Sequence record: OL656110.1
DNA length: 64,000 nt
DNA from: Escherichia phage vB_EcoM-RPN242
Strand: one strand, 5' to 3'
Shown piece by piece: positions 2,631 to 56,962 of the stretch. Position 1 is the first letter of the stretch, and each line of letters opens with the position of its first letter. The position numbers were made by a program, and so were the translations under genes. A model generated the notes under the pieces. That model worked only from the letters and a program-made list of their open reading frames with translations. It was not told the DNA's origin and did no database searches.

Positions 2631-3359
2631 TTACTTCAGCGCGTTCTTCAGATTATCGGAACCAATGCTGTTGATGACACCTCCGGCGCAGATATCTTTC
2701 GCCCACTCTGAGATCACGTTGGCAAAAGAGAAGTTAAGACACTTACCAACCATGTCTTGGATATGGGCTAACTCTGCTGCAATACCGTTCGTGATGTCCT
2801 GAGCAATAGAGGCTACTGATGCGACAGCAGTGTCGATGGCCTGAGTAACTTCAGCAGCCAGTGCCTGAATAGCATCAAGACCAGCACCGACGCCCTGAGC
2901 TACCAACTCAGCCAGCTCATTCATCTTGTTTGTGATAGTTGTGAGAACACTTTGCATGGTGTTGATCCACTGTTTGCCGAGGTTCTGAATAACCCCAAAT
3001 GCATTATTGATCAGATCACAGTTGTTCGGTTCTCGACCTATAGACTTCAGGGCGGACTTATACGACACAGATGTACCGATGCGGGAATATGCCTCGTTCA
3101 CTGACTGGTCGCCATAGTTGTTCAAAGTAGTGATGCTGTTGTTGGCTGAGTTGAACATTGCTGTAGATTCGTTGAGTTTGGCTGTAGTCAACCCACCTGC
3201 CGTCAGCGCTTCCTGAATCTGCGCATTTCCGGTGTTAGCCAGTGACGCTGTAGTCGCCTTACCACTGGTGATTAACCCCTGTGAGGCGCTGCTGAGGGAC
3301 GGGAGAGGATTGGTAAAGGCGTTGCCCTGTGATAGGGCGTCATAGATCTGTGCGTTCAT
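2631..3359 (-). CDS. late protein, Ala/Ser/Thr-rich, likely virion-associated, 242 aa
   Basis: Track start 3401 lies upstream of the late promoter; re-called to ATG at 3359 which follows GGGGGTATTTTCTT. Confidence 0.6.
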   Translation of the reverse strand: MNAQIYDALSQGNAFTNPLPSLSSASQGLITSGKATTASLANTGNAQIQEALTAGGLTTAKLNESTAMFNSANNSITTLNNYGDQSVNEAYSRIGTSVSYKSALKSIGREPNNCDLINNAFGVIQNLGKQWINTMQSVLTTITNKMNELAELVAQGVGAGLDAIQALAAEVTQAIDTAVASVASIAQDITNGIAAELAHIQDMVGKCLNFSFANVISEWAKDICAGGVINSIGSDNLKNALK

Positions 3360-3383
3360 AAGAAAATACCCCCATGGATGATG

Positions 3384-3394
3384 GGGGTATTTAG
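3384..3394 (-). promoter_or_regulatory. late promoter motif CTAAATACCCCC with inverted copy at the ribosome-binding site
   Basis: Minus strand reads CTAAATACCCCCATCATCCATGGGGGTATTTTCTT-ATG; 11-12 bp inverted repeat AATACCCCCAT / ATGGGGGTATT. Confidence 0.6.
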
Positions 3395-3608
3395 GGATCA
3401 TGGTAGTTTGTAAACGAAGTTGGACCAGAACTTACGAACAAACTTCTTGACATAAACCATTCGGTTGGCGTATTCCCCATCCTTCAGGTCATTGTAGGTC
3501 TCGATCCCTACCGCGCCCAAGAAGTACGCCGTGAAGATATAGCAGAACAGATTGATGACGACAAACATGATGTATCTCCGCTGTGTGTACTCAATTATTT
3601 ATGGTATG

Positions 3609-4031
3609 TTACAAAAGGCGCTTGGTCTTCGGCTTACCCATTAGAGTGATATCCACAGGCAGGCCAGCTTTCTTGCAACGGTTGATCATGTCCAGGGTGC
3701 CAGTGGACGAACCATCCCACATCGCAATCGGATACACTTCCAGCTTGGTCTGTCTGACGAGATCCAATGCCTTGTCTAACATGTCCTGATTGCGTTTGTT
3801 GCCCATCCCTTTCCCATACTTTTCATAATAGCTCGGAGGTATTGGCATAGGAGTGATATGAACATAATTGATTTCAGCCCAGTCACGGCAAATCTTGTCC
3901 ACACCAGAGGCTTCACCCTCAATCAGTGTATAGACCTCACGAGGATCGAGGAGTTCGTCCAGCTTGGCGAATACCTTATCCCGCTCGGTGATTGAGCGGG
4001 AACCCGTAATGAGAACGATATACTTCTTCAT
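3609..4031 (-). CDS. hypothetical protein, possible Rossmann-like SLOG/DUF2493-type fold
   Basis: MKKYIVLITGSRSIT...LIEGEASGVDKICRDWA pattern; start at 4031 or 4049. Confidence 0.45.
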   Translation of the reverse strand: MKKYIVLITGSRSITERDKVFAKLDELLDPREVYTLIEGEASGVDKICRDWAEINYVHITPMPIPPSYYEKYGKGMGNKRNQDMLDKALDLVRQTKLEVYPIAMWDGSSTGTLDMINRCKKAGLPVDITLMGKPKTKRLL

Positions 4032-4035
4032 AGAA

Positions 4036-4356
4036 TCACAGCGCCCCAAGATTGCCGATTACGTACAGGGAGCACAGAGGAGTACCTGACGAACGAGGTT
4101 CGATCGTCATCCCGCTCAGGCGGATCAGTTCCAGTAAGCCGTCAGTGGTCTGATACGCGCGTGTCGAACCGTTCGGTCGATATAGCTCCAGCTCAGTTCG
4201 CCCTTCCTTTATTGCATTTCGAATGCGAGTGAACACACTGTGGTCGCCGAACTTCTGTTTCAGAAGATCCAGCTTGGTGGTCAGGCGGCGACGTGGTTTG
4301 CGCGCACGAGGGTTCTCTTTTACGACCGCTTCTAAAATCGGGATGCTGTTAGCCAT
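4036..4356 (-). CDS. hypothetical protein, 106 aa
   Basis: ATG with AGAGGA upstream. Confidence 0.5.
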   Translation of the reverse strand: MANSIPILEAVVKENPRARKPRRRLTTKLDLLKQKFGDHSVFTRIRNAIKEGRTELELYRPNGSTRAYQTTDGLLELIRLSGMTIEPRSSGTPLCSLYVIGNLGAL

Positions 4357-4512
4357 GATAAAGTCCTCTATTTGTAGGGGATAGGGTATGCGGTTAACAT
4401 ACCCTGTTCAAAGGTTTAGAACAAATTGCTGCAATGTTACTTTGTAACGAGAGTGGTGATAGTTCCTTCATTTCAGAGTCAGTGTTGTGCTGCTTATGGA
4501 ATGAAGTATACG

Positions 4513-4545
4513 GGGTTTATTGAAGAATTAAACCCCGTATATTGA
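4513..4545. terminator. perfect 12-bp hairpin atacggggttta...taaaccccgtat in a 200-bp intergenic region
   Basis: Inverted repeat read directly; contains the recurrent TTCTTCAATAAA motif on the minus strand; sits just past the end of 4559..4795. Confidence 0.4.
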
Positions 4546-4558
4546 ATAAATTTAAAAT

Positions 4559-4795
4559 TTATTTGAAGCGATCAGGAAGGGTGTCGTGAACCTCGGCGCT
4601 CAGCACCAGAAACTTACCATCCGTCGTTGGGAAGCAATAGTCTTTCTTGATGTGACGCAAGTGTTCAGCTACAGCTGCTACGCAGTCATCTGTCACGTCG
4701 GTCTTCTCACCAACCCACATGCTGGTTTTGGTGTTCAACCTGCCCTGGAATATAGTACCAGTGAGAGGACTTGCGCCGATCTTTTTGATAATCAT
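4559..4795 (-). CDS. hypothetical protein, 78 aa
   Basis: ORF in gene-dense minus-strand block. Confidence 0.45.
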   Translation of the reverse strand: MIIKKIGASPLTGTIFQGRLNTKTSMWVGEKTDVTDDCVAAVAEHLRHIKKDYCFPTTDGKFLVLSAEVHDTLPDRFK

Positions 4796-4803
4796 GTTTA
4801 ACC

Positions 4804-5247
4804 TCAGTTGTTAACGCGGAATGCCGCCGGATACCCACCTGGATGCCCTTCTCCGGTCACGAAGACCTCGTACCGGGCACCTTTAACCAAACCAGGCAAA
4901 TTGCCTGAGTCAAGCAGATAGCGGATTTTATCCATAGTCTCCATCCAGGACTTAGCAGGTTCGGCCTCGGCCTCCCCACGGTTGATTTTGATCACACCCT
5001 CTGAATAATACTTCCCATTGTCCTTCATGTAGTACAGCTTGACATCGATAAACTGTGGGGATGGAACTTCTGTCCAACCCTCATCGTTCAAATCCTGGCG
5101 ATCATTGTCGAAACTCTGAAAATCAACATCACCGCATGCCAGGCGATAATCTTTGAATTTACGGAAACCTTCCACCTTGTCCCCAACGGAGCTACGGAAG
5201 AACTGTTTCTTGGCGGGACTAATGAAAATGAAATTCTTGTCACACAT
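4804..5247 (-). CDS. hypothetical protein, 147 aa
   Basis: Track start is TTG at 5268; ATG at 5247 has AAAGGAAGG 9 nt upstream. Confidence 0.5.
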   Translation of the reverse strand: MCDKNFIFISPAKKQFFRSSVGDKVEGFRKFKDYRLACGDVDFQSFDNDRQDLNDEGWTEVPSPQFIDVKLYYMKDNGKYYSEGVIKINRGEAEAEPAKSWMETMDKIRYLLDSGNLPGLVKGARYEVFVTGEGHPGGYPAAFRVNN

Positions 5248-5264
5248 GATATAGATCCTTCCTT

Positions 5265-5489
5265 TCAAAGAATGTTGTGTTCGTCGATATCGGACTGCGT
5301 TGCAATCTCCCAGCGGACGATGTTCTCGGTTGTGACGAAATCACGGTTCAGGTGAGAGGCTGGCACATACACCATCGTGTCGACCATGAAGTAACACTGC
5401 TCATTGTTACAAGAATCAACGTAAACCTCGATGAGGCACACCTCGGCAACACCGGCTTTCGGCTTCTTCACGATCTTTTTCAAGTACAT
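5265..5489 (-). CDS. hypothetical protein, 74 aa
   Basis: ATG start, GAGGG upstream. Confidence 0.45.
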   Translation of the reverse strand: MYLKKIVKKPKAGVAEVCLIEVYVDSCNNEQCYFMVDTMVYVPASHLNRDFVTTENIVRWEIATQSDIDEHNIL

Positions 5490-5514
5490 GGTACAACCCT
5501 CGGATAAGTAGACG

Positions 5515-5546
5515 GGGCAATAATACCTCTCGCCCCGTTATTGAAA
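5515..5546. repeat. 32-nt intergenic repeat, copy 1 (gggcaataatacctctcgccccgttattgaaa)
   Basis: Identical 32-mer recurs at 5775-5806, exactly 260 nt away; contains a hairpin. Confidence 0.7.
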
Positions 5547-5549
5547 CTG

Positions 5550-5750
5550 TTATCCTTCTTGTTCTTCCCAACCCCATTCATCTTCCCAAGACTGGCGAGG
5601 GGTCTTGCCTGCTTCGTAATCATCACGCCAGGCGTCGGCGTCGGCGGCTGAACCGCCCTGGCTTTTCGCGACTTTGCATAATACGTCGTGCCACTCACGG
5701 AAAGTGGAGTTGGCGACTGTGGTGTTTACAGAATCTTCTTTCAGGCTCAT
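5550..5750 (-). CDS. hypothetical acidic, Trp-rich protein, 66 aa
   Basis: Track start is TTG inside repeat copy 2; ATG at 5750 has GAGGAAATCACA upstream. Confidence 0.4.
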   Translation of the reverse strand: MSLKEDSVNTTVANSTFREWHDVLCKVAKSQGGSAADADAWRDDYEAGKTPRQSWEDEWGWEEQEG

Positions 5751-5774
5751 TGTGATTTCCTCGATTAATAGAGA

Positions 5775-5806
5775 GGGCAATAATACCTCTCGCCCCGTTA
5801 TTGAAA
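5775..5806. repeat. 32-nt intergenic repeat, copy 2
   Basis: Identical to 5515-5546. Confidence 0.7.
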
Positions 5807-5813
5807 TGTTCTT

Positions 5814-7286
5814 TTAGTTCAAGACATATTTGATCAGTCCACAATTCCAAATCCTGACCAACCCGGCTTCGGTTGCTAACTGGCTTTCTGTTTTGCCTTC
5901 TACGTCATACCCCATGCGAGCAAATGAACCTTTTCTGAAACCGAATTTGTGCTCACGCATAAATGTGCCAGGCTTGTGATATTTGTAGTCTGGCTTCTGT
6001 ACTTCCTCTTCTATGAATCCGTGGGATAGGTAAATGTTGGACAACCTGCTTACAACACACCTATCCCCAAAGGAATAGATTTTGGTGTCGGCAAATTTTC
6101 TTCTGAAGTGTGAAAGAAGTTTACTGAATGCCCCGTGGCAATCATTAGAGGCAAATCTGACTAATTCCAGGCCATCTTTCCTTTTAGTGAATAGCATCAC
6201 GGCTTGTATGACCCCACTCTTGTCAATTAACGATAAATGGTGGGTGGAAGAAACGGAACCTTGTATGTGGTGGTTGTCTAAAAACTCCCTCAAGCCGCTT
6301 ATATTTCCCCAAACGACTTTGTGTTGGCGAGCATATGACGCAGGCGTTTTAATGCCAAGTTTAGCTTTCAGAAGAGATTTGACCACTTCCTGTTTCTCAA
6401 CCCATTCATCTTCCCAGATGTGGATCAACTGGATACCCTGAGATTCACATATTTCAGTCTTTTCCAGGTGATAATATTTCTCTTTAAAAACTTCTGAATG
6501 CCAGTACAGGCCATTAAATTCAATCGCCAATTTGTGTTCAGGGCAATAGATATCCAGTTGTTTACCGGATAATATACTGTAATCAGAAACAGTGTTTACA
6601 ACTCCCATTGAGGTGAGAAACTCGGATATTTCCTTTTCATAAGAAGATTTCTTGTTCCTGATAGAACCATTGCTGAACAACGCACGTTTTAGTATGTTCG
6701 AGTTTTTCATAGGGTTGTCAACACCATAACGTTCTTGTAACGTTGCCAACGCCTTCTCCCTCACACCAGGTAATTGTAGTGTGGAGCAGCTTCCGTATTT
6801 GGATATATTCGAAGTCTCTATGGCTTTCCGACCAATCCCACCTTTACACATAGAAACCTGATAACATTCTTCAGAACAATATGTTCTGTAATCTTTATTA
6901 TTGATATAAAAGTTGGTTTCCTTGGAACACACCGGGCATATTTTCACGGTTCTATTGTACAGCCAAGCTGTGACTTTACAAGCCAAATCTTGTAGGGTGT
7001 TGTGGGTATTGGCGAACGCTAAAAGGTCTACATTGATGTGCTTCATAAGCAGTTCAGATTTGCATTTTTGGATATCCAATTTGTTGTTCTTGGTAAACAT
7101 ATATTTGTAGAAAAATTGGCGATATGATTCCTCGTCAGACAATTCATTCACTGCTTCAAGGAAACCTTCCGGGAGGTTCTTTAGGGTGTTCGATGCGAAG
7201 GTCTTGCAAGCATCTGAACAAAATTTCTTATCTTTCCTGGATGCTTTGAACTGTTCATGGCAGACACTACAGATTACCTGATACAT
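5814..7286 (-). CDS. putative free-standing homing-endonuclease-like protein with Vsr/DUF559-type nuclease motif and two Cys-pair zinc-finger-like elements
   Basis: LAIEFNGLYWHSE matches the Vsr-family (F/I)xDGxxWH signature; CSVCHEQF...CSDAC and CPVCSKE...CSEEC pairs; sits next to the capsid gene as segD does in T4. Track start 7382 runs through the terminator hairpin; re-called to ATG at 7286 (GGAGGAG upstream). Confidence 0.55.
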   Translation of the reverse strand: MYQVICSVCHEQFKASRKDKKFCSDACKTFASNTLKNLPEGFLEAVNELSDEESYRQFFYKYMFTKNNKLDIQKCKSELLMKHINVDLLAFANTHNTLQDLACKVTAWLYNRTVKICPVCSKETNFYINNKDYRTYCSEECYQVSMCKGGIGRKAIETSNISKYGSCSTLQLPGVREKALATLQERYGVDNPMKNSNILKRALFSNGSIRNKKSSYEKEISEFLTSMGVVNTVSDYSILSGKQLDIYCPEHKLAIEFNGLYWHSEVFKEKYYHLEKTEICESQGIQLIHIWEDEWVEKQEVVKSLLKAKLGIKTPASYARQHKVVWGNISGLREFLDNHHIQGSVSSTHHLSLIDKSGVIQAVMLFTKRKDGLELVRFASNDCHGAFSKLLSHFRRKFADTKIYSFGDRCVVSRLSNIYLSHGFIEEEVQKPDYKYHKPGTFMREHKFGFRKGSFARMGYDVEGKTESQLATEAGLVRIWNCGLIKYVLN

Positions 7287-7335
7287 AATTATTCTCCTCC
7301 ATATGGTATCTAGTATAACCTGTTCGATAATATGA

Positions 7336-7363
7336 ACAAATAAAAACCCCGCCGAAGCGGGGT
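7336..7363 (-). terminator. rho-independent terminator after the capsid gene
   Basis: Minus strand: hairpin CCCCGCTTCGGCGGGG followed by TTTTTATTTGTT. Confidence 0.7.
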
Positions 7364-7390
7364 TTGTCAGGGTTAAGGACAACTATTCGA

Positions 7391-8713
7391 TTAGAAAAGT
7401 CCCTTAATTAACCCTTTGCGGAAATACACGTTGCTGTCCTTGGCGATACCATCCGCAGTCACATAGACCTGTGGATCCTGGTTCGCTGGGATCTGAACGA
7501 ATGGGTTAGCACAAATCCCGTAGCGGGTCTTGAATGCCATACGTGGTGCGAAGGTGGTTTCACCCTGGGTGCGGTACATTTCCAGCGGTACATACGGTGC
7601 GAAGAAGATACCAGCGTCCAGCGCGGTTGCGCCTTTGTATGCCAGGGTGATGTATTCTGCTACTGCATACGGGTCGATGTAGACACGCATACCGTTAGAC
7701 AGCACACCAGCGAAGGTCTGGCCAGTCGGATCAATCGCCAGCTTGGTGTTTTCCTGCAGCGCCGGAGCATAATCCAGCATGCCGGACATCGCCAGAGCGG
7801 ATGCTACGTTCGGAGAACACAGAACACGGTTGCCTTTACCACGACGGGTATCAACACCGATGCCGTTCGCTTCAACTTCCAGCATGAAAGTCATGTACTT
7901 CCATTTTTCCAGCGCCCAACGACCGGAGATGTCAGTGGAGATATCTACGATACCATTGGTGCCGAATTTTTTGAAGCGTACTGCGCTGAAGTTCATGGTG
8001 CGGATAAACTCACGGTTCATCTCTGCCTGAATTTCAGTTACCATCACGTCGGACAGGATGCTGTCAACGTCTTCGCCGTGGATCGCCATCATGTCCTGGC
8101 GCAGTTCGTGGCTGTAGTCAGCGTACAGGCCACGAGACTTCGCAGTCACGGTTGCTTTCTGAACGGTGATACCAACACGTGCCCATGGGTTGGTGGTGGT
8201 GCCCAGCAGTTCGGCGTCGGTAGTTGACATACCTTTACCGATGGTGGTAGCAGCGCCGGAACCTTCGATCTCAGTCTGGGAGAAGCCAGATGGGTCGCCA
8301 GCCTGTGCAGTGTCGTCACCAGAGTAGCCAGAATCAGCTTCCTGCATGAACAGTTCTTTACGGGAATGTTGGGTGTTGGAGCCGCCGTCTGAAATGCCCT
8401 GGCGAGCACGCAGTGCGAAGATCTGACCGTCAGGACCAGACAACGGCTGAACGCCGAAGAAGTCCATCGCGATGTTGACCGGAGCCAGACGTTTGGCCAT
8501 GTCGATCAGGACTGGCTGCCATTTGCCCACAGAGGCGTTCACGGAGCCAGGAGCGTCAGATTCGCCCAGGTTTTTGGCGTTCCACTCAGCCTGGTTTTGC
8601 AGCAGACGGACGGCAACGTTTTCGGCAGAAAGCGGCTGGATGCTTTCAGATTCTTTCTGAAGAACTGGCAGCCACTGCTCGCGCATTTGTTCGGTAACAA
8701 GTTTCTTAGCCAT
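7391..8713 (-). CDS. major capsid protein (T4 gp23-like)
   Basis: 440 aa; follows scaffold, protease and portal in T4 order; ATG at 8713 has TAAGGAA upstream. Confidence 0.75.
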   Translation of the reverse strand: MAKKLVTEQMREQWLPVLQKESESIQPLSAENVAVRLLQNQAEWNAKNLGESDAPGSVNASVGKWQPVLIDMAKRLAPVNIAMDFFGVQPLSGPDGQIFALRARQGISDGGSNTQHSRKELFMQEADSGYSGDDTAQAGDPSGFSQTEIEGSGAATTIGKGMSTTDAELLGTTTNPWARVGITVQKATVTAKSRGLYADYSHELRQDMMAIHGEDVDSILSDVMVTEIQAEMNREFIRTMNFSAVRFKKFGTNGIVDISTDISGRWALEKWKYMTFMLEVEANGIGVDTRRGKGNRVLCSPNVASALAMSGMLDYAPALQENTKLAIDPTGQTFAGVLSNGMRVYIDPYAVAEYITLAYKGATALDAGIFFAPYVPLEMYRTQGETTFAPRMAFKTRYGICANPFVQIPANQDPQVYVTADGIAKDSNVYFRKGLIKGLF

Positions 8714-8804
8714 GATGGTCATTCCTTACATTGATATTCAGTTAAGTTGAAATTACTTAGTAGTTCAAAATCAAGCCCCCTTTCGAGGGCTGTGGCTGCT
8801 AAAA

Positions 8805-44864: not shown

Positions 44865-44941
44865 GGTCCTGTAGCTCAGTGGTAAGTAGCAGTGAACTCA
44901 TAATTCATTGGTCGTTGGTTCAAATCCAACCAGGATCACCA
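44865..44941 (+). tRNA. tRNA with CAU anticodon (Met or Ile2)
   Basis: Hand-folded cloverleaf: acceptor GGTCCTG/CAGGATC, anticodon loop CTCATAA, T-arm GTTGG-TTCAAAT-CCAAC, encoded CCA. Confidence 0.75.
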
Positions 44942-45193: not shown

Positions 45194-45282
45194 GGAAGGT
45201 TGCCCGAGATGTTTAAGGGACTCGACTGCTAATCGAGTGGGGCTTTTAGCCCCCGAAGGTTCGAATCCTTCACCTTCCGCCA
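45194..45282 (+). tRNA. tRNA-Ser (GCU) with long variable arm
   Basis: Acceptor GGAAGGT/ACCTTCC, anticodon stem CTCGA/TCGAG with loop CTGCTAA, variable arm GGGGCTTTTAGCCCC, T-arm GAAGG-TTCGAAT-CCTTC, CCA. Confidence 0.75.
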
Positions 45283-55970: not shown

Positions 55971-56276
55971 GTGCAAGAACAATCCAAGTTTGGGGAAACC
56001 CCAGACAAGCGTTCCGGTGATAGCGACATGGATAGCGTGATTAACCATGTGAACAACTTCATTCGCCAGCAGGAGACTCCAACTCCTATCGGTGCAGCCA
56101 AGGCTCTTCATGATGTACTGGTGAAGATCGGCCAGCGCTCTGAAGCGGATGAAATCTTCTATAACTTCGACGACCAGTATAAAGTTAAGTTTGAAGAGAA
56201 TGGCTGCCCACAGGTTGCTGTGTTCTGGGCACCTTGGCTGGGCGGCGTGAGCTGGCGTATTGAGGATGCTGTGTAA
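55971..56276 (+). CDS. hypothetical protein, 101 aa
   Basis: GTG start with strong AGGAGG 6 nt upstream. Confidence 0.5.
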   Translation: MQEQSKFGETPDKRSGDSDMDSVINHVNNFIRQQETPTPIGAAKALHDVLVKIGQRSEADEIFYNFDDQYKVKFEENGCPQVAVFWAPWLGGVSWRIEDAV

Positions 56277-56962
56277 TGCTGTCGCTTTACCTGATCACGA
56301 ATCTCGTCAATCATAAATTCTATATCGGTGTCACCTCAGAACCGGATAGGCGGTTGGCTGAGCATAAGTGTGGTCAGGGGAGCATTGCATTACAACGAGC
56401 GTTCAAGAAATACGGTGAAGACCAGTTCAAGTTTGAAGTTCTGTTCCGAGGGAAAGATTCGGTTATCCTTCAGATAGAGTCTGAACTGGTCTGCCAGGAG
56501 ATCCTTGACTCTGGGTGGTGCTACAACATGGTCGTCGGGGGTGGGAAGCCTCCATTGGCCACGCCTAATTCATCCGCAAAGAGTGCTGCAACCCGCAAAC
56601 GTTTGATCGCTGAGGGTAAGATCAAGCCACCTCCCCGCATATCGGCTGAGTCACAAAGAAAGGGTGGTGAAACCAGAAGGAAACTGATTTCCGAGGGAGT
56701 GATAAAGAAGCCATTACCTCCACCTTCAAAAGCCCAGAGGCGAGCAGGTGAGACAAGGAAACAGTTGCATGCTCTTGGCCTGATAGACATTGGTCCTGGC
56801 CGCGATGAAACGATTTACAAATGGCAGCACAAAGATGGTCGCATTGTTGAGTTAAGAAGATGCGATATGGAACTTCAATATGGCCTCCCTTCTGGTAATA
56901 TAACGAATCTCTTGAAAGGTAGGGCTAAAACATGTCTCGGTTGGAGAATAATGAATGGCTAA
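56276..56962 (+). CDS. GIY-YIG homing endonuclease with C-terminal NUMOD-like repeats
   Basis: LYLITNLVNHKFYIGVT...RRLAEH; three repeats of TRK.L...G.I; paralogous to 13218..13931. Confidence 0.8.
   Translation: MLSLYLITNLVNHKFYIGVTSEPDRRLAEHKCGQGSIALQRAFKKYGEDQFKFEVLFRGKDSVILQIESELVCQEILDSGWCYNMVVGGGKPPLATPNSSAKSAATRKRLIAEGKIKPPPRISAESQRKGGETRRKLISEGVIKKPLPPPSKAQRRAGETRKQLHALGLIDIGPGRDETIYKWQHKDGRIVELRRCDMELQYGLPSGNITNLLKGRAKTCLGWRIMNG

Follow-up and report, generated by a model that had tools for sequence, protein, structure and literature searches.

The window analyzed here is a stretch of 64,000 nucleotides (nt) from Escherichia phage vB_EcoM-RPN242 (sequence record OL656110.1). Directly downstream of the major capsid gene, it carries a gene for a protein of 490 amino acids (aa) that is orthologous to F-LimVII of Dickeya phage vB_DsoM_LIMEstone1 (LIMEstone1). 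We consider it likely that this gene encodes a functional free-standing Hef-like homing endonuclease of the Vsr-fold ("EDxHD") type, whose cleavage activity we infer. The source is a coliphage of the Ackermannviridae (Aglimvirinae), like Escherichia phage YX22, with which the region shares 97.9% identity, and the locus is common to 287 phage records. Its features are as follows.

7391..8722, minus strand: major capsid gene, a conserved neighbor directly upstream of the endonuclease gene and on the same strand
7463..7529, minus strand: silent-site haplotype at the 3' end of the capsid gene, linked to the endonuclease gene (from alignment)
7344..7365, minus strand: intrinsic terminator of the capsid gene, outside the cassette, which starts after its T-tract
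5788..7341, minus strand: variable cassette of ~1.55 kb, consisting of the gene, its leader, and a 26-nt 3' tail (from comparison with phage MK-13)
7287..7341, minus strand: 55-nt leader, part of the cassette, with the ribosome-binding site (RBS) GGAGGAG at 7294-7300
5814..7286, minus strand: homing endonuclease gene, F-LimVII ortholog, 490 codons plus stop, with its ATG at 7286
7182..7286, minus strand: zinc finger 1, aa 1-35 (C6, C9, C23, C27), a beta-hairpin and helix in the AlphaFold2 model
6846..6950, minus strand: zinc finger 2, aa 113-147 (C117, C120, C137, C141), YacG/FCS-like
6672..6839, minus strand: helical "KYG" repeats, the DUF7487 region of Pfam, aa 150-205
6357..6653, minus strand: Vsr-fold nuclease domain, aa 212-310, with conserved E217, D245, E256, N258, H263, H273, K276, and D293
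5817..6356, minus strand: Mom-family GNAT domain, aa 311-490, with conserved H340, R377, S388, D408, R409, and Y419

The six-frame list of open reading frames (ORFs) gives a longer version of the gene, 5814..7382 on the minus strand, with a TTG start and 522 aa. An earlier note on this DNA had pointed out that this frame begins upstream of the capsid terminator, and indeed the TTG at 7382 precedes the hairpin at 7365-7344, placing the terminator (a 9-bp G+C-rich hairpin followed by a T-run) within the 5' end of the 522-aa ORF. The same note proposed that the real start is the ATG at 7286-7284, which stands behind the GGAGGAG RBS at 7300-7294. This proposal is backed by the annotations of six orthologs, all of which begin at the same ATG and are 490 to 491 aa long, and by stop codons that lie in frame, 4 and 8 codons before the ATG, in phages pSal-SNUABM-02 and CECAV_050, respectively. 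No alternative start was seen in the ChubbyThor ortholog. The terminator and the TTG also sit within homology to phages without the endonuclease gene. We rejected the 522-aa TTG reading because of the in-frame stops in the orthologs and because the 32-codon extension is found in the DNA of gene-less phages too; the longer frame arises artefactually when an ORF is taken to run from the first start codon that follows a stop.

The start codon is thus corrected, and the gene is named where the GenBank records of near-identical phages call it hypothetical or mislabel it. The ortholog is a "hypothetical protein" in YX22, LHE287, and AV101, a "DUF559 domain protein" in pSal-SNUABM-02, and a "putative HNH endonuclease" in ChubbyThor; contrary to the last label, the ortholog protein has no HNH motif.

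Several lines of evidence assign the protein to the Hef-like family. It matches PHROG 3339, "homing endonuclease," at 2.5e-156, and it is 98.8% identical to the hypothetical protein of phage LHE287. Amino acid identity is 87% to LIMEstone1 F-LimVII, described as a free-standing "Hef-like" homing endonuclease (Adriaenssens et al. 2012, PMC3296691), and 43 to 44% to F-LimIII and F-LimX. Phage Hef-type endonucleases have in turn been placed in the Vsr-like EDxHD family (Taylor et al. 2011, PMC3239194). Beyond this homology to named members, the gene is intergenic and free-standing, lies beside a conserved gene, and is present in some close relatives and absent from others. The sole PADLOC match is to the generic "HEase" model (7e-6). 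A tblastn search for paralogs within the 64-kb window found none. The window also contains a second putative homing endonuclease gene, at 56276-56962 on the plus strand, whose 228-aa product matches PHROG 19446, "homing endonuclease," at 1.3e-102 and gives weaker GIY-YIG-type matches.

The family is very large, with 19,754 cluster representatives (50% identity) at an E value of ≤1e-3. The best 150 representatives all match ~aa 4-285 of a core of ~285 aa made up of the nuclease and the Mom-like domain, and in 149 of them the match to the core ends no more than ~20 residues from the C terminus. Apart from the under-explored Mom-like domain, the gene is an unremarkable member of a family that is already known.

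Four regions make up the protein: two treble-clef zinc fingers, KYG repeats, a Vsr-like nuclease, and a C-terminal GNAT domain. AlphaFold2 models it with a mean confidence (pLDDT) of 92 over the full length and 91 over residues 1 to 312. The earlier note had described a Vsr/DUF559-like core, recognizable from the motifs LAIEFNGLYWHSE and IHIWEDEW, in a fold also used by a described homing endonuclease, and had called for searches against profiles of both kinds. In Pfam and NCBIfam, the nuclease domain yields matches to MTES_1575, DUF559, and Vsr, all of them sub-threshold: NCBIfam vsr (TIGR00632) reaches 19.3 bits where the cut-off is 97.85, and Pfam Vsr reaches 18.3 where it is 27. Among homing endonuclease profiles, PHROG 3339 gives the strong match cited above. 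The homing endonuclease I-Bth0305I (PDB 3R3P) is the only solved structure found by sequence, at an E value of 0.003 when the protein alone serves as the query and 1.1e-6 when a profile of 52 family sequences is used, and 3r3p also ranks first when the full model is compared with the PDB by Foldseek. The domain thus shows the Vsr-like variant of the restriction-endonuclease fold, as the note had proposed, and the finding that would have refuted the note, a lack of Vsr-fold support, is clearly not what was observed.

Residues of the nuclease domain are strongly conserved. In the alignment of 52 family members, D245, E256, H263, H273, K276, and D293 are invariant and E217 is kept in 51, and the nuclease residues are intact in seven orthologs. 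E170, D196, N208, and H213 of the EDxHD motif have their counterparts in E217, D245, N258, and H263, whereas its last residue, D222, is aligned with a His (H273). The N-terminal region of the EDxHD prototype consists of NUMOD and helix-turn-helix (HTH) elements; here, no NUMOD match was found, and the zinc fingers and DUF7487 repeats occupy that place instead. A GIY-YIG catalytic domain was sought in the window protein with Pfam, PHROGs, and NCBIfam, with no match.

At the N terminus, the earlier note had noticed a zinc-finger-like region with two CxxC...CxxC pairs. Two cysteine clusters are indeed present, in two treble-clef-type fingers at aa 1-35 and 113-147, while the second half of each is CxxxC rather than CxxC (C6-x2-C9...C23-x3-C27 and C117-x2-C120...C137-x3-C141). 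Pfam YacG gives a weak match to aa 117-145 (0.0038). All eight cysteines are kept in the seven orthologs (7/7). Across the family, the first cluster is kept in 22 to 24 of the 52 members, and C117 and C120 of the second are kept in 45 and 44, respectively (C137 and C141 were left untabulated). The fingers are followed by the KYG repeats, which probably serve in sequence recognition; Pfam DUF7487 matches aa 153-205 at 4.7e-5, below the cut-off, and is matched by 26 of the 52 relatives, with a best E value of 3e-36. Because family members vary mainly in this N-terminal part while the core (aa ~206-490) is conserved, the comparison suggests that the N terminus tunes target recognition.

The C-terminal 180 residues form a domain that goes beyond the description in the earlier note, as does the orthology to F-LimVII. 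The domain has a GNAT fold, a feature of the Mom family, and it is as well conserved among orthologs as the nuclease (91 to 99% identity for each part; 79 to 99% for the N terminus). The 52 members give matches to 16 Pfam families, of which Mom (PF25680) alone is an acyltransferase family; it matches 13 of the members at an E value of ≤0.01 (best, 5e-8), with P0041 and P0083 above the curated cut-off. When the family profile is compared with a profile of 27 aligned Mom proteins, the probability is 93.6% (E value of 2e-7), and window residues 320-435 align to Mom residues 38-175. In this alignment H58, R111, S124, D149, R151, and Y159 of Mu Mom, which are essential or important for its function (PMC13219725; PMC7261163), fall on the identical residues H340, R377, S388, D408, R409, and Y419. 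Among the 52 members, H340, R377, and Y419 are invariant, D408 is kept in 51, R409 in 42, and S388 in 36; residue 388 is Gly in the LIMEstone1 ortholog. The link to Mom required the Mom alignment together with the matches in relatives. A direct Pfam search with the C-terminal 180 aa of the window protein gave no match at an E value of ≤10, a narrow Mom-only hidden Markov model (HMM) did not report the window protein, and hhalign against the single Mu Mom sequence gave a probability of only 21%. The relationship of the domain to Mom is a remote one.

As judged from sequence, the Mom-like domain is most likely a DNA-binding, possibly base-flipping, partner of the small nuclease domain. We favor this recognition role because the smallest family members (256 to 286 aa) consist of the nuclease and the Mom-like domain only and because the position of the essential Ser is variable. 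We retain, as an unlikely alternative, the proposal of Iyer et al. of a catalytic modification that would give self-protection, since neither the Mom-specific Arg nor most of the pocket residues vary within the family. More generally, we see some chance, though a small one, that the Mom-like domain of Hef-like endonucleases is catalytically active and that these enzymes, besides cutting DNA, also mark it chemically, for instance through the tRNA-dependent aminoacylation of a base. Such an activity would provide epigenetic self-immunity for the element or a means to mark the target, and it would be a mode of action undescribed for any homing endonuclease, in a family of ~20,000 sequence clusters. 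Mom itself was recently shown to modify DNA using Gly-tRNA, at N6 of adenine. The window has two tRNA genes, tRNA-Met(CAT) at 44865-44941 and tRNA-Ser(GCT) at 45194-45282, both on the plus strand; no gene for tRNA-Gly, the co-substrate of Mu Mom, was found in it.

In comparison with relatives, the gene has the behavior of a mobile cassette. Against phage MK-13, which is gene-less, homology stops at 5787 and restarts at 7342, and in an alignment of 15 phages the sequences diverge directly past the T-tract of the terminator. The full cassette is found in 24 of the 287 records with the locus, from phages of Escherichia, Salmonella, Shigella, and Dickeya. In most relatives (Ag3, MK-13, Det7, Se_EM4, and EspM4VN), its place is taken by two small ORFs of ~228 and 333 nt, and pSal-SNUABM-02 retains one small ORF (315 nt) beside the endonuclease gene. 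The gene and its flanks have discordant phylogenies. For CECAV_050, identity to the window is 98.5% across the scaffold and protease genes yet drops to 84.5% for the endonuclease gene, which shares 96.7% with its LIMEstone1 counterpart, compared with 88.7% for the flanks of those two phages. pSal-SNUABM-02 shows the opposite pattern: identity to the window is 95.1% for the gene, ~90% for the capsid, scaffold, and protease genes, and 77% for the genes downstream. DNA identity among the seven orthologs ranges from 84 to 99%.

The same site holds other endonuclease genes in other phages. In Escherichia phage A221, it is occupied by a Hef-like paralog of 662 aa (positions 3815-5803 of locus L004) with DUF7487 and nuclease regions and 46% amino acid identity. 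The last ~260 nt of its coding region are 95% identical to the window gene, and we therefore regard the paralog as a mosaic with a junction inside the Mom-like domain; PC3, PH4, and fGh-Ecl02 show the same match pattern. Salmonella phage SP-9-14 has at this site an ORF of 283 aa (positions 2939-3790 of locus L013) with a weak SegE-type GIY-YIG match. The site past the capsid terminator is, as far as these sequence matches indicate, a hot spot for unrelated endonuclease families. The comparison of capsid-proximal regions of relatives, which the earlier note had recommended as a check, thus reveals a sporadic cassette and a site shared with other endonuclease genes.

The DNA downstream of the gene is also variable. 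A direct repeat (5503-5546 and 5763-5806, with 32 nt identical at 5515-5546 and 5775-5806) flanks a gene of 66 aa (5550-5750, PHROG 519), and the left end of the cassette (5788) lies inside the repeat. The repeat has two copies only in the 64-kb window and none in shuffled sequences. The 66-aa gene is unannotated there in AV101, ChubbyThor, and CECAV_050, and LHE287 and ZQ1 share a 5% coverage gap. The arrangement looks like repeat-mediated insertion or deletion of a small gene cassette beside the endonuclease gene. Enterobacter phage EspM4VN has an extra ORF of 285 aa without a Pfam match (positions 1566-2423 of locus L012) where relatives have a small gene of 201 nt, a further sign of a variable region in the few kilobases downstream of the capsid gene.

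The presence of the gene is linked to a haplotype in the 3' end of the neighboring capsid gene. Of ~1550 aligned columns, 6 fully split seven carriers from six non-carriers; all are third codon positions and all lie within 7463-7529. In 23 further loci from IMG/VR, 7529 and 7523 stay diagnostic (GC in 3 carriers, AT in 20 non-carriers), 7514 still separates the groups yet varies within each, and 7496, 7475, and 7463 lose their diagnostic status. The capsid gene of ChubbyThor is 98 to 100% identical to that of gene-less MK-13 in each 100-nt interval from 8608 to 7612 and changes to the gene-linked haplotype at ~7530. We consider 7463-7529 a co-conversion tract and a candidate target region. Under this model, the enzyme would, during a mixed infection, cut the DNA of a gene-less relative near the 3' end of the capsid gene or in the following intergenic region, and recombinational repair from the carrier genome would copy in the cassette plus the adjacent capsid 3' markers. 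Both the cleavage activity and the location of the target are putative. Hef, as Sandegren et al. reportedly found, cuts hef-carrying and hef-less DNA alike in vitro.

The position of the gene bears on its expression. The RNA fold of the capsid terminator has an energy of -16.1 kcal/mol (z = -3.2; 0 of 200 shuffles as stable). The terminator is kept in all 15 related phages examined, with or without the endonuclease gene, and is also annotated as a terminator in LIMEstone1. The leader that follows contains a weak sigma-70-like pair, TTGTTC (7334-7339) and TATACT (7312-7317), separated by 16 nt. The leader sequence GGTTATACTAGATACCAT is identical in all seven gene-carrying phages and does not occur in gene-less phages. 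TATACT matches the -10 element of an annotated early promoter of LIMEstone1; the TTGTTC-16-TATACT pair scores below the threshold of the promoter scan, and its function as a promoter is putative. A search of the minus strand from 5700 to 7400 for a late promoter of the LIMEstone type (TAAATA) found none. Expression would come from terminator read-through of the abundant capsid transcript or from a weak promoter of the gene's own, either of which implies low expression. Low expression is usual for such endonuclease genes (PMC2988022).

Some observations weigh against a functional homing endonuclease. The final Asp of the EDxHD motif (D222) aligns with H273, an invariant His in all 52 members that is followed by the shared Lys (K276). 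The cassette substitutes for other sequence and is not a simple interruption, so that illegitimate or homologous recombination in a variable region could give part of the pattern. The linked capsid haplotype could mark a shared recombination block and not a cleavage site, the genomes being few and non-independent. Finally, in the literature on the family, the only member described as tested is Hef of phage U5. One rival reading is a relic, decayed or domesticated, of a homing endonuclease whose cutting activity is gone and which is either kept for another reason or not yet lost. Many phage homing endonuclease genes are inactive, and this one lacks a TAAATA-type late promoter in front of it and is preceded by a strong terminator. 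The reading frame, however, is full length and has a good RBS, all nuclease and zinc-binding residues are intact in the seven orthologs, which share 84 to 99% of their DNA sequence, and in some pairs the gene is more conserved than its flanks; we regard a relic as very improbable. A genuine Vsr-type T:G mismatch repair nickase, acting in repair of the phage DNA, would account for the fold and the part of the active site that are common to Vsr. It would leave unexplained the bit scores far below both Vsr cut-offs, the homing endonuclease that is the closest solved relative by sequence, and the extra domains and presence/absence pattern, which are unexpected for a repair enzyme, and its probability appears close to nil.

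The alternative with most in its favor takes the Mom-like domain as its starting point. The protein would be a single-chain modification-restriction weapon in which that domain modifies and protects the phage's own DNA while the nuclease attacks unmodified host or competitor DNA; homing would then be incidental, or the element would have epigenetic self-immunity. Precisely this was predicted for the Mom-REase fusions of jumbo phages (Iyer et al. 2021, PMC7824862). It agrees with the alignment of six essential or important Mu Mom residues to identical window residues and with the invariance or near invariance of H340, R377, Y419, and D408. Mom R111 is conserved in Mom homologs and not generally across GNATs (PMC7261163), and the domain is constrained as strongly as the nuclease. 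Yet the equivalent of S124, whose replacement in S124A leaves Mom catalytically dead, is itself replaced in 16 of the 52 members, including the 87%-identical LIMEstone1 ortholog with its Gly. Mom Y59 and the dimerization residue W48 are unmatched, and the window protein reaches no Mom HMM directly. Genome-wide restriction, moreover, does not predict a sporadic, site-specific, flank-dragging distribution, and the up to 10 to 12 matching places in one Campylobacter phage genome fit selfish elements better. We judge the weapon to be doubtful, although less so than the relic or the nickase, and prefer a Hef-like homing endonuclease whose Mom-like domain would help it to recognize DNA.

The gene, its family, the link to the Vsr fold, and the Mom-REase fusion are all already published or annotated, and the locus can be set beside several known systems. 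The earlier note had compared it with T4 segD, a free-standing endonuclease gene located by the major capsid gene, between genes 23 and 24 (PMC2988022). The parallel holds for the position and gains substance from SP-9-14, which has a GIY-YIG Seg-like gene at the same site; it does not extend to the protein, since SegD belongs to the unrelated GIY-YIG family and its gene is in antisense orientation (PMC2988022). LIMEstone1 F-LimVII (ORF137) is much closer: it is 87% identical over the full length (491 versus 490 aa) and is likewise encoded between the capsid-gene terminator and the next small genes, in the same orientation. It differs in the host genus and phage genus, in its downstream neighbors, in an N terminus whose 112 aa are 79% identical, and in the Gly in place of Ser388.

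More distant are Hef of the T-even-like phage U5 and the "hef-like" genes of phages Acj9 and 133, as published accounts describe them (Sandegren et al. 2005, cited in PMC2988022 and PMC2993671). They share with the window gene the family name, the conserved nuclease and C-terminal core, and a free-standing position next to a conserved gene; T4-like phages match window aa 175-487 or 201-487 at 32 to 35% identity. Unlike in the window protein, no N terminus of zinc fingers and DUF7487 was matched in T4-like phage records. The target gene would also be different, as Hef is reported to cut nrdB. I-Bth0305I (PDB 3R3P; PMC3239194), the relative of known structure, is unlike the window protein in being intron encoded, in its length of 266 aa, in its N-terminal NUMOD/HTH repeats, and in the absence of the C-terminal domain.

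That C-terminal domain resembles Mu Mom (PF25680; PDB 8BV8; PMC13219725) in its GNAT fold, in six identical functional positions, and in a helical insertion before the last strand, represented here by helices at aa 447-473 between strands 434-437 and 477-480. Mom, however, is a stand-alone dimer of 241 aa, whereas here the domain is fused behind a nuclease and the equivalent of S124 is variable in the family. It can now be asked in concrete and testable terms whether a homing endonuclease uses this conserved domain to bind, flip, or modify bases, and the Ackermannviridae capsid locus, with its natural carriers and non-carriers, is a convenient test system.

Apparently the same pair of domains makes up the jumbo-phage Mom-REase fusions (Iyer et al. 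2021, PMC7824862), and RaK2, AR9, Callisto, and the Lak jumbo phages match window aa 179-488 or 206-488. Iyer et al. read these proteins as restriction plus self-protection and not as homing endonucleases, and they mention neither Hef nor Vsr. Our literature search found no paper that joins Hef, homing endonuclease, and Mom. The two strands of the literature, on the "Hef-like homing endonuclease" and on the "Mom-REase fusion," thus appear to treat one very large family under unreconciled readings.

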